A stretch of 64,000 bases of DNA, taken from the NCBI GenBank assembly GCA_965216875.1, contig OZ244207.1, positions 3,232,001 through 3,296,000 of the forward strand. Reading direction: 5' to 3'. The notes below the pieces were generated by a model. It saw nothing but the letters and a program-made list of their open reading frames with translations. It had not been told where the DNA came from and made no database searches. This document shows positions 49,973-51,284 of this stretch, piece after piece; the first letter of the stretch is position 1, and every line of letters starts with the position of its first letter. The stretch comes from Rubripirellula sp. Lineage in GTDB: Bacteria; Planctomycetota; Planctomycetia; Pirellulales; Pirellulaceae. The translations under genes and the position numbers were made by a program.

Positions 49973-49998
49973 GCCAGAAATCAGATTGCTAAACGGCT

Positions 49999-50027
49999 GG
50001 GAGGGCGACGCTCCTGCGGAGCTTCCT
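49999..50027 (+). repeat. Left 29-bp inverted repeat of the suppressor-tRNA cassette (REP-like)
   Basis: GGGAGGGCGACGCTCCTGCGGAGCTTCCT; its reverse complement matches 51084-51112 and 51219-51247 at 28/29 nt. Confidence 0.85.
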
Positions 50028-50034
50028 CGCTTAG

Positions 50035-50109
50035 TACGTGCGGCGGGGTTCGAACCCGCAACTCACAGGCATTTAGAGTGCCCGGCTCTACCAATTGAGC
50101 TACGCACGT
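50035..50109 (-). tRNA. tRNA with anticodon CUA (amber suppressor type; amino acid identity unknown)
   Basis: ACGTGCG TA GCTC AATTGGTA GAGC C GGGCA CT-CTA-AA TGCCT GTGAGTT GCGGG TTCGAAC CCCGC CGCACGT A: 7-bp acceptor, 4-bp D, 5-bp anticodon (one G-U) and 5-bp T stems; CCA not encoded. Confidence 0.9.
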
Positions 50110-50115
50110 GAGTAA

Positions 50116-50142
50116 GCCGTCGCCGTAGGAGACGGCGACGGC
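50116..50142 (-). other. Strong hairpin just upstream of the tRNA
   Basis: GCCGTCGCCGT-CTCCT-ACGGCGACGGC, 11-bp perfect stem, 6 nt before the tRNA 5' end. Confidence 0.7.
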
Positions 50143-50155
50143 AGTTTAACTTAGC

Positions 50156-50563
50156 TTAGCTTTGAAAATACTCCGACACTTTTTCGTGCAACGCTTCGAT
50201 GCTCGCACCACACTCTTGGTCAAACGGCAAGACCGGTTCACCATTTGGAGTTCGTGCACGCAGAAAGAGTTCCACAATCTCGTGATCGATCACTCGTTTT
50301 GGATAAACGCGGTAGTGCGTGACATCGCCCCGCTGAAGTGGCCGATACCAAACGGTGTCGATGACAAAATGAGGGCAGAACTTCGGTTCAGGGCCGTTGC
50401 GGTTCTGCTCTTCCTTTCGCCACCATCGGTGCCACGCGTGAAAGTCGTACATGGTTTGCCAATACCATCGATGAAGCTCCTTTAGTTTGCAGTAAAGTGC
50501 ATAGTTGCATGGGTGATAGCCCCAACGGCTTTGAAACGATTCGGAGTGCTGTTGAGTTTGCAT
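50156..50563 (-). CDS. Hypothetical Trp/Arg/His-rich protein of the suppressor cassette
   Basis: SRWGYHPCNY..YCKLKELH...WHRWWRK..NR; ATG 50563, or TTG 50635 overlapping the upstream TGA; ends TAA. Confidence 0.75.
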   Translation of the reverse strand: MQTQQHSESFQSRWGYHPCNYALYCKLKELHRWYWQTMYDFHAWHRWWRKEEQNRNGPEPKFCPHFVIDTVWYRPLQRGDVTHYRVYPKRVIDHEIVELFLRARTPNGEPVLPFDQECGASIEALHEKVSEYFQS

Positions 50564-50631
50564 TGATTGTCTCTTGCTTTTGAATGAGTTGAGTTTGGTT
50601 TCGATGTCGCCCCATGGGCGCAGCGGGATCG

Positions 50632-50985
50632 TCAATGATCGGGCTGGGGCAACAGGCGGTAGCGCCTGAAGAGTCGTCGAATCGCACCGCGAACCGGTTC
50701 GGTCGCGATTGCGGTTAGCGGAACGTCGAGATCGGCGTCGAAGAAGGGCACGCAGCCAACGTCATGGAGCTGCAAATAGCGCAGCACGCAGCGAAGTTCG
50801 GTTGCATCATCAACACCCAATAAGACGAGCCGCGGATGCTCCGACGGAGGCGGCAAAGAAGTGCGTGCCATTTCAATGCACGCATGACAGGCCTGAACAG
50901 CCTGTTGGGGCGCGGAGAGATCGCGCCGGACAAAAGCATAGACATAGGTCGGTTGTGAGGGCGGTACCTAGGTGAATCCAGTCAT
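50632..50985 (-). CDS. PTH2-like peptidyl-tRNA hydrolase family protein with in-frame UAG at codon 6 (117 aa on read-through)
   Basis: GGAG-6nt-ATG ACT GGA TTC ACC TAG GTA CCG... gives MTGFT*VPPSQPTYVYAFVRRDLSAPQQAVQACHACIEMARTSL...HPRLVLLGV...FFDADLDVPLTAIATEP...RRYRLL. The ORF track shows only the last 79 aa. Confidence 0.78.
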
Positions 50986-51029
50986 CAAATGCTCCATATA
51001 GGGGATTGGAAACGTTCGCATCAATCGAG

Positions 51030-51038
51030 AGTATATCA
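51030..51038 (-). promoter_or_regulatory. Candidate extended -10 promoter for the cassette
   Basis: TGATATACT (TGn-TATACT) about 45 nt upstream of ATG 50985. Confidence 0.5.
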
Positions 51039-51078
51039 CACGAAAGGCGGTTCGTCCCAAGATCAGATGAATGAATTC

Positions 51079-51284
51079 CTCCAAGGAAGCTCCGCGGGAG
51101 CGTCGCCCTCCCTGCGGTTCATTCGTCCAATTCGTTTGATTCGTGGTTCACTCGAAATCAATCACACGTCCTTCCTATCTTTCGTGACTTCTCGTGCTTT
51201 TTGTGGCAAGTCTCTCCAAGGAAGCTCCGCGGGAGCGTCGCCCTCCCCGCGGTTCATTCGTGCAATTCGTTTGATTCGTGGTTC
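51079..51284 (+). repeat. Two 71-bp direct repeats (51079-51149, 51214-51284)
   Basis: CTCCAAGGAAGCTCCGCGGGAGCGTCGCCCTCCC(T/C)GCGGTTCATTCGT(C/G)CAATTCGTTTGATTCGTGGTTC, two mismatches, 135-bp period. Confidence 0.9.

Follow-up and report, generated by a model that had tools for sequence, protein, structure and literature searches.

How can a bacterium that closes many of its genes with TAG keep a tRNA that reads TAG as sense, and why should a gene beside that tRNA carry a TAG near its own start? Both questions are raised by a cassette in the chromosome of the planctomycete Rubripirellula sp. (GenBank assembly GCA_965216875.1, contig OZ244207.1), within the 64,000-nucleotide stretch from position 3,232,001 to 3,296,000 that was analysed here and is called the window. 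On the minus strand of this stretch, a gene for a PTH2-fold, hydrolase-like protein is interrupted by TAG at its sixth codon and is followed by a second gene, here called gene B, and by a tRNA with the anticodon CUA. An earlier note, written from the sequence alone, had read this arrangement as a unit in which the tRNA decodes the TAG. From comparison with related loci we conclude that the cassette is a real, conserved and apparently undescribed module, in which the gating of the hydrolase gene by its stop is well supported and for which we infer a biochemical role. The linked tRNA very probably reads the gate, and the amount of full-length hydrolase would then follow the activity of the suppressor against that of release factor. 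Searches of a full-text literature collection with few subscription journals returned no report in which suppressor tRNAs, in-frame stops and genes of the PTH2 type are connected, in agreement with the note's remark that this was not a described system.

A stop-gated gene and a stop-reading tRNA in one cassette

The hydrolase gene begins with a Shine-Dalgarno sequence, GGAG (50992–50995, minus strand, as are all genes of the cassette), placed 7–10 nt upstream of the ATG (50985–50983) of a five-codon leader, ATG ACT GGA TTC ACC (M-T-G-F-T; 50971–50985). Codon 6 is an in-frame TAG (50968–50970) with G as the next base; this stop, which is read in the sequence and recurs in relatives and in a diverged strain, is referred to as the gate. 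The frame opened by ATG 50985 continues past the TAG until TGA 50634–50632, and the 111 codons beyond the gate (50632–50967) encode the hydrolase-like domain, assigned with AlphaFold2, Foldseek and a family profile. The first canonical in-frame start downstream of the TAG is ATG 50871, which gives a 79-aa open reading frame (ORF); starting there would lose strand 1 and most of helix 1, including an invariant VQACHA motif. The protein set of the host genome contains the hydrolase solely in this 79-aa form, cut by the gene caller. The Shine-Dalgarno sequence, start and stop were thus correctly read at the outset, as was the absence of ATG, GTG or TTG between the stop and the conserved motif, ATG 50871 lying beyond VQACHA. 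Gene B follows at 50156–50563 on the same strand and encodes 135 aa. It ends in TAA and the hydrolase gene in TGA, as had been described.

ARAGORN finds a single tRNA in the window, at 50034–50109 on the minus strand with the anticodon CTA, and Rfam places its tRNA family (RF00005) at 50035–50109 with 60.0 bits (gathering score 29, E 8.2e-12), so that the claim of an intact tRNA(CUA) was right. It is the sole stop-reading tRNA among the 99 tRNA genes that ARAGORN calls in the single-contig genome of 8.26 Mb. The cloverleaf is canonical: the acceptor stem has 7 bp, the D and T arms are of normal build, and the anticodon loop reads CUCUAAA; CCA is not encoded. This tRNA has all the marks by which suppressor tRNAs were defined, namely an anticodon complementary to a stop, a loop of 7 nt, U33 and a purine at 37, and comparison across loci (below) points to a natural in-frame stop for it to decode. 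The same loop occurs in 33 of 46 distinct related tRNAs, and the suppressor tRNA exceeds the Rfam gathering score in 19 of the 20 related loci tested, the exception being L035. No close co-resident parent tRNA was found: none is more than 72% identical in the host, where the nearest other tRNA is at most 72% identical, or in the phages BF, RsoM2USA and Arash. An 81% match in a relative of the host (G015) was set aside, as it is an ordinary tRNA-Asp.

A trivial explanation would be that the TAG is an error of sequencing or assembly. The TAG region is identical in contigs of a run with the same organism label, at a depth of 130, and a contig spanning the TAG from a third study is likewise identical. 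A related strain from another study differs at 11 listed positions over 1.1 kb and keeps both the TAG and the tRNA. Unchanged in contigs of three studies, the TAG is not an artefact.

Stop and anticodon agree across related loci

We collected 83 related loci by pattern scans of genome and metagenome contigs, called their tRNAs with ARAGORN and read their hydrolase genes in frame through stops; 82 of the 83 could be classified. The early stop and the linked tRNA, which the earlier note had seen at one locus, are both conserved. A stop-reading tRNA is present in 55 of the 83 loci and any other tRNA in only 8, and 64 of the 82 genes that could be classified are interrupted by an in-frame stop, which takes one of two set positions. 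Class N comprises 33 genes with TAG (one ambiguous) and 4 with TGA; here the stop comes after a leader of 2–7 codons, or 12 in one case, whose ATG is mostly preceded by an AGGAG-like site at the same distance as in the window; between stop and domain, ATG, GTG and TTG are absent in the window locus and in most class N loci. In class I (23 TAG and 4 TAA) it occupies a fixed loop position 11–18 codons past V-Q-A-C-H-A. These counts take L060 as TAG-gated although the remainder of its gene looks broken, and L026 as ungated although TAG and then TAA precede its domain; L017 is ambiguous, with an ATG after the gate, and L040 is a fragment.

The type of stop matches the anticodon in all 44 loci that have both on one stretch (39 TAG with CUA, 4 TAA with UUA and 1 TGA with UCA), and in 37 of 37 when distinct gene sequences are counted. 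Together with the conserved position of the stop and its recurrence in cultured phages, this agreement upholds the proposal that the full domain needs decoding of the stop by the matching tRNA of the same unit, and argues that the stop is conserved design, not damage. The base after the class N gate, read from the listed contexts, is a purine in 32 of 32 distinct cases (G in 24, A in 8); a U at this +4 position is reported to lower read-through (PMC5289835). Among the TAG-gated genes, 4 of the 22 rows for class N and none of the 17 for class I also have TAG as the terminal stop, a weak hint of TAG avoidance; the TGA-gated genes themselves end in TGA.

The same comparison bears on another account, which takes the leader for an ordinary upstream mini-ORF, has the domain made by re-initiation at some non-canonical codon beyond the stop and regards the tRNA as unrelated. 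Short upstream ORFs with coupled re-initiation are common, and GTG, ATT or ATC does follow the stop in a few loci. In most loci, however, the codon after the stop is GTA, GTT, GTC, GGC, AAC, AAA or GCG, the internal stops of class I are left unexplained, and re-initiation would not make the type of stop track the anticodon in 44 of 44 loci. We regard this account as barely credible.

The loci differ in their surroundings. The closest (L002, L003, L006 and L007) lie amid typical planctomycete chromosomal genes, such as those for DUF1501 proteins, sulfatases, ECF sigma factors and Ser/Thr kinases, and two of the closest come from metagenome-assembled genomes titled Planctomycetaceae and Planctomycetales. 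Others are phage-like, with genes for terminase, lysozyme, dUTPase, DNA ligase and RNA ligase.

Several features of individual loci were recorded in passing. Class N leaders often end in x-G-F-(T/L/V/A) before the stop, at TAG and TGA gates alike (the window, L002, L020, L023 and L024). On the terminase-bearing contig L034 (6301–6629), three tRNA(CUA)-like genes stand in a row after the hydrolase gene, one with a long variable arm and one with an odd D arm, and in L037 a tRNA-like gene with a four-base anticodon (gaaa) lies beside two tandem tRNA(CUA) genes. A phage-borne tmRNA (L071:3342–3732) lies 2.3 kb upstream of one module, and on a 436-kb contig genes for an RF-1-domain protein and a class I aminoacyl-tRNA synthetase (L060:7779–12089) lie beside another.

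The same gate in cultured phages

A tblastn search of GenBank phages located the family in 28 records, mostly of jumbo phages. Four of these have a TAG gate and a tRNA(CUA): Serratia phage BF (leader M-T-H-TAG, tRNA at 3.3 kb), Ralstonia phage RsoM2USA (M-L-TAG, tRNA at 13 kb), Acinetobacter phage ME3 (M-T-TAG, with a tRNA 450 nt upstream that is annotated 'OTHER, anticodon CTA') and Salmonella phage Arash (M-L-TAG, tRNA 1 kb downstream). The gated gene is unannotated in BF and RsoM2USA, split in Arash and annotated only from after the gate in ME3, and the module thus has a bearing on annotation, the gated gene being missing or truncated in several GenBank phage records. As a side observation, this tRNA(CUA) of Arash (L123:4301–4375) is annotated as tRNA-Phe in the record; its anticodon is CTA according to ARAGORN.

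Agrobacterium phage Atu_ph07 allowed a prediction to be made. An opal suppressor (UCA) and PTH genes are described for this phage (PMC6102473); a TGA gate was predicted from the reported suppressor, and was then found. The gated copy reads AAAGG, then ATG ATT GGC GAA CAC TTT TGA, and is one of three PTH2 matches in a genome that contains tRNA(UCA). No start lies between the TGA and the annotated ATG, which cuts off the first strand of the fold. Stop and anticodon thus agree in all five cultured phages with stop-gated genes (BF, RsoM2USA, ME3, Arash and Atu_ph07). Phages XacN1 and Xoo-sp13 carry a fused, ungated form, and RaK2 an ungated copy within a tRNA cluster. Further PTH2 paralogues accompany the gated copy, with three matches each in BF and Atu_ph07.

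In BF, the HD-like gene that directly follows the gated hydrolase gene (L089:2815–3381) has one in-frame TAG of its own and appears in the record as two fragments; the corresponding residue in ME3 and Arash is Val. BF therefore contains at least two adjacent amber-interrupted genes.

The gated protein is a divergent branch of the PTH2 fold

The identification of a PTH2-like domain stands as to fold and profile and is weak as to Pfam, where the window protein scores 13.9 bits against PF01981, below the cut-off of 23 (E 0.063). Relatives exceed that cut-off, among them P0042 (38.2 bits), P0080 (31.5), XacN1 ORF364 (25.3) and the gated copy of Atu_ph07 (73.7). An AlphaFold2 model built from an alignment of 42 rows, comprising 12 homologues from a large protein collection and the translated loci, has a pLDDT of 92.9. 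In Foldseek, PDB ranks 1–10 for this model are all archaeal or human Pth2, with TMq 0.66–0.77 and probability 1.00 (the chains include 2zv3, 3erj, 1q7s, 1rlk, 1wn2 and 1xty), and the family profile matches Pth2 among PDB sequences at E 2.9e-8 and 2.4e-7.

The family departs from these enzymes at one motif. Work on Sulfolobus solfataricus Pth2 reportedly stressed the importance of the catalytic lysine of a G-K motif before helix 1. In profile alignments, the lysine of this motif in 24bt, 2zv3 and 1rzw aligns with a nearly invariant Gln of the family, in which V-Q-A-C-H, including its Cys-His pair, is invariant; the gated copy of Atu_ph07 retains the canonical GK. As the lysine is replaced by Gln, we file the protein as a divergent PTH2-fold branch and not as a proven Pth2 enzyme; models and alignments support this placement, with peptidyl-tRNA hydrolysis as a putative activity. 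The branch is large, with 2510 cluster representatives at E ≤ 1e-10 and 4975 at E ≤ 1e-3. Its gates sit before the fold (class N) or in a loop (class I), and the model accordingly suggests that a residue of any kind inserted there would be tolerated.

Gene B, whose length of about 135 aa had been given correctly, lies directly 3' of the hydrolase gene in 20 related loci and contains no in-frame stop. Its alignment has seven invariant residues (G15, H17, W47, K50, N54, R104 and P106), and its AlphaFold2 model has a pLDDT of 93.8. The sequence has no match in Pfam, NCBIfam, PADLOC or the Atlas, and the fold none by Foldseek at E ≤ 1e-3 in PDB or BFVD; a designed helical bundle, the best VIA-align hit at Z 5.3, was rejected as within background. 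In 8 metagenomic proteins among the 150 listed representatives, a PTH2-like domain followed by a gene-B domain forms a single protein (E 1.6e-32 to 9.8e-7). Such fusions argue that the hydrolase and gene B work together, and gene B appears from these comparisons to be more than a passenger. Proteobacterial jumbo phages have an HD-like protein instead as neighbour or fusion partner, assigned at 26.9 bits against a cut-off of 22 for P0066 and weakly for the others. The genes downstream of the phage hydrolases (ME3 gp267 and others) were also considered as gene B and are not.

The host uses the standard code and ends many genes with TAG

Among 3545 ATG-initiated ORFs of at least 300 aa in the host genome, 1484 end in TAG, 1311 in TGA and 750 in TAA. 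TAG as the commonest stop is unusual for bacteria. The earlier note had counted at least six other genes in the window with a terminal TAG; a partial check of this count, on the 11 Pfam-supported genes between 36.8 and 64 kb of the window, gives three. Two PCRF-domain release-factor genes are present in the genome. PylS was not found there, the best match to TIGR02367 scoring 22 bits against a cut-off of 178; the ARAGORN label 'tRNA-Pyl' reflects the anticodon only, and the D and T loops of the window tRNA are of the ordinary kind, unlike those of tRNAPyl. The standard code applies in the host, whose genome does not show the pattern of a genome-wide reassignment of TAG (code 15). Since TAG ends such a large share of long ORFs, an amber suppressor left without control would affect much of the proteome.

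As side observations on other tRNA genes of this chromosome, about 50 lie in two arrays within 42 kb (591000–632638), resembling a tRNA-array island, and at 3442059–3442132 ARAGORN places a tRNA-like gene whose anticodon has four bases (tttc).

What the hydrolase may act on

If the tRNA reads the gate, what is the hydrolase for? The mechanism we favour, at a probability of roughly 40%, is a self-limiting governor that acts on the suppressor tRNA itself. Termination at the gate would yield only a tiny peptide. The full-length hydrolase, guided by a partner domain (gene B here, the HD-like domain in proteobacterial jumbo phages), would cleave the ester bond of the acylated suppressor tRNA. More suppression would mean more hydrolase and hence less suppression, a negative feedback that would keep read-through tolerable in a host in which TAG ends about 40% of long ORFs. 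A stable and potentially toxic tRNA would also be safe to transfer in the company of its neutraliser, encoded in antitoxin-first order. This mechanism is favoured because adjacency is specific to suppressor tRNAs (55 of 83 loci, against 8 with another tRNA), because the partner domain is conserved or fused, because the catalytic lysine is replaced, because phages keep the gated copy beside other PTH2 paralogues, and because free suppression would be costly to the host. This genome shows that an amber suppressor tRNA can persist in a bacterium with TAG as its most frequent stop, apparently because the tRNA brings its own control circuit.

Several points weigh against such a governor. PTH2 enzymes hydrolyse peptidyl-tRNA, not aminoacyl-tRNA, so that by default the enzyme would recycle the suppressor and not antagonise it. 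Eighteen of the 82 genes have no gate, an arrangement hard to understand for an antagonist that lies next to its tRNA; tRNA(CUA) stands beside 9 of 15 distinct ungated genes, which would better suit a helper. For 15 distinct stop-gated genes, no suppressor tRNA lies within the stretch covered, which for four of them (L007, L021, L024 and L029) extends 4–6 kb to both sides. The decoding role of the tRNA is itself drawn from comparison, and the TGA and TAA matches within that comparison come from few lineages, two for TGA and one for TAA. No hydrolase homologue was found in the 40 relatives of the host that were searched, and the cassette is thus accessory here. Klebsiella phage FBKp24, finally, is reported to carry a UUA suppressor, tRNA-Sup-TTA (PMC8386662), and its genome has no match to PF01981 or to the family profile.

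The ungated copies beside suppressor tRNAs fit more readily a dose-matched clean-up, in which a general peptidyl-tRNA hydrolase, its level tracking read-through via the gate in a feed-forward manner, would clear away the peptidyl-tRNAs that come off ribosomes stalled after read-through, or those from damaged tRNAs. The PTH2 fold and profile, the relatives above the Pfam cut-off and the canonical GK of the gated Atu_ph07 copy all suit such a role, as do the tmRNA in L071 and the RF-1-domain and synthetase genes in L060. Against it, the catalytic lysine is replaced in this branch, and the partner domain is conserved or fused, whereas canonical PTH2 acts alone. It is suppressor tRNAs in particular, and not tRNA arrays, that lie close to the hydrolase gene. 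Ribosomes that read through one stop, moreover, mostly terminate at the following one, rescue by tmRNA does not require Pth, and bacteria already possess Pth1. A review of jumbo phages lists PTH2 and proposes it for ribosome rescue, and in the available text of that review 'suppressor' and 'stop codon' have 0 occurrences each (PMC7824862). We consider clean-up a real competitor, although on the whole a doubtful one.

The default substrate of PTH2 also invites a reading with the opposite sign to the governor. Owing to the short leader, peptidyl-tRNA would drop off the ribosome and so sequester the suppressor, and the hydrolase would free it, so that suppression would reinforce itself and flip from off to on, for instance at a set time of infection. 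A gate 2–7 codons from the start falls in the drop-off range of short peptidyl-tRNAs, and the minigene literature (lambda bar) functionally links very short ORFs with peptidyl-tRNA hydrolase. Ungated copies would again suit a helper, and selenocysteine-containing SelD offers a precedent for a recoding apparatus that itself depends on a recoding event. In class I, however, the gate lies about 35–40 codons in, where drop-off should be low, and suppression that reinforces itself would be dangerous to a host that uses TAG more often than any other stop. Such a positive-feedback switch is distinctly unlikely.

The earlier note had itself suggested a sensor, in which competition between RF1 and the suppressor at the gate reports RF1 limitation, translation stress or phage attack and the hydrolase is the response. 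Competition with release factor is inherent to the design, two release-factor genes are present, and the cassette is accessory and bracketed by repeats (below), like many defence islands. The module is nevertheless common in phages themselves, no defence genes neighbour it at this locus, and neither the hydrolase, gene B nor two relatives match any PADLOC family (0 matches). Nothing in the sequence data ties it to stress. A sensor of this kind is very unlikely.

Returning to the governor, it may be one member of a widespread, mobile class of 'genetic-code governors', each comprising a suppressor tRNA, a dedicated PTH2-fold hydrolase whose synthesis is stop-gated and a partner that confers specificity. 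Such a class would set its own level of read-through, in UAG, UAA and UGA forms, in giant phages and in bacterial chromosomes. We put this forward tentatively, as a possibility with the odds against it.

The setting of the cassette

Between gene B and the tRNA lies a perfect hairpin of 11 bp (50116–50142), as had been noted. On the minus strand only two T follow it on the 3' side, and for this reason it is not a typical intrinsic terminator; it may serve in processing or in protection of the mRNA 3' end. A candidate promoter proposed upstream of the hydrolase gene was not confirmed, a sigma-70 scan of the locus returning 0 sites.

The cassette is bracketed by a 36-nt inverted repeat that resembles repetitive extragenic palindromic (REP) elements. 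The left arm (49992–50027) is 92% complementary to the right arm (51084–51119) and to a further copy (51219–51254), which lies inside a 71-nt direct repeat. With about 33 copies of the 36-nt repeat in the 8.26-Mb genome (at most 4 mismatches), three within 1.3 kb form a cluster. The units of the 71-nt repeat (51079–51149 and 51214–51284) are direct and 135 nt apart, and some of the other REP-like copies in the genome, such as those at 493 kb and 1193.5 kb, lie close to tRNA genes. In the window, a Ser/Thr kinase gene neighbours the cassette on one side and ribonucleotide reductase genes on the other. The insertion site was sought in the DNA of congeners, which is too diverged to define it.

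An accessory cassette in a setting of this kind could be the decaying remnant of a phage, its TAG a fossil and its tRNA idle. The missing homologues in the 40 relatives and the empty sigma-70 scan would fit such decay. Both ORFs are otherwise intact, though, the tRNA is canonical, and the diverged strain keeps TAG and tRNA unchanged among its 11 differences. The closest loci, moreover, are planctomycete chromosomes assembled from metagenomes, with the same three-part order. Decay in this genome is therefore highly improbable.

Comparison with known systems

Recoded phages, crAss-like, Lak and others, are a near parallel: they carry suppressor tRNAs on which genes with in-frame stops depend, and control of timing has been proposed for them (10.1101/2021.08.26.457843). 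Shared with these is a stop-reading tRNA of a mobile genome and genes that depend on it. The module described here differs in that it belongs to a standard-code genome, in that one gene family is gated at a fixed position and linked to the tRNA, and in that it also occurs in bacterial chromosomes and uses all three stops.

Jumbo phages with a standard code are known to carry orphan suppressor tRNAs (XacN1, PMC5852040; RsoM2USA, PMC8504454; Atu_ph07, PMC6102473; FBKp24, PMC8386662), and the available text of these reports names no target for them. The tRNAs are of the same kind as that of the window, and in RsoM2USA and Atu_ph07 they are the very same tRNAs as those discussed above. What is added here is a probable conserved target in these two phages, the stop-gated PTH2-type gene, and the orphan suppressors thereby gain something concrete that can be tested.

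The pyrrolysine cassette pylTSBCD (PMC3941956) is likewise transferable, with a tRNA(CUA) at its core by which UAG is decoded in certain genes. The host examined here lacks PylS, however, the cassette has neither a synthetase nor biosynthesis genes, and the gated gene is tRNA hydrolase-like.

With Pth2 (PF01981) the window protein shares the fold (TM 0.66–0.77 over ten chains), the R-x-D-L ... Q-x-x-H-A start of the helix, and an acidic loop with a T-A strand. It differs in scoring below the Pfam cut-off, in having Gln for the GK lysine and in its invariant Cys-His, and its branch has a dedicated partner domain, a stop-codon gate and a link to suppressor tRNAs.

The gene for RF2, prfB, offers a regulatory analogy. 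It too has an early in-frame stop in a translation-factor gene, and bypass depends on an activity that the product changes, which makes it self-limiting. There the bypass is a +1 frameshift with no dedicated tRNA, whereas here a co-encoded suppressor tRNA would read the stop, and the feedback may have either sign. Toxin–antitoxin operons resemble the cassette in gene order only, a potentially harmful, stable molecule being co-encoded with a neutraliser whose gene comes first. The governor may behave as such a pair with the tRNA as the harmful partner; we know of no toxin–antitoxin type in which a suppressor tRNA has that part. If the hydrolase does act on the suppressor, the cassette would be a natural, self-tuning read-through device that would set a new regulatory principle beside those of prfB, selenocysteine and pyrrolysine. 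It could also be of use in engineering the genetic code, which meets practical difficulties with suppression that is leaky or toxic.

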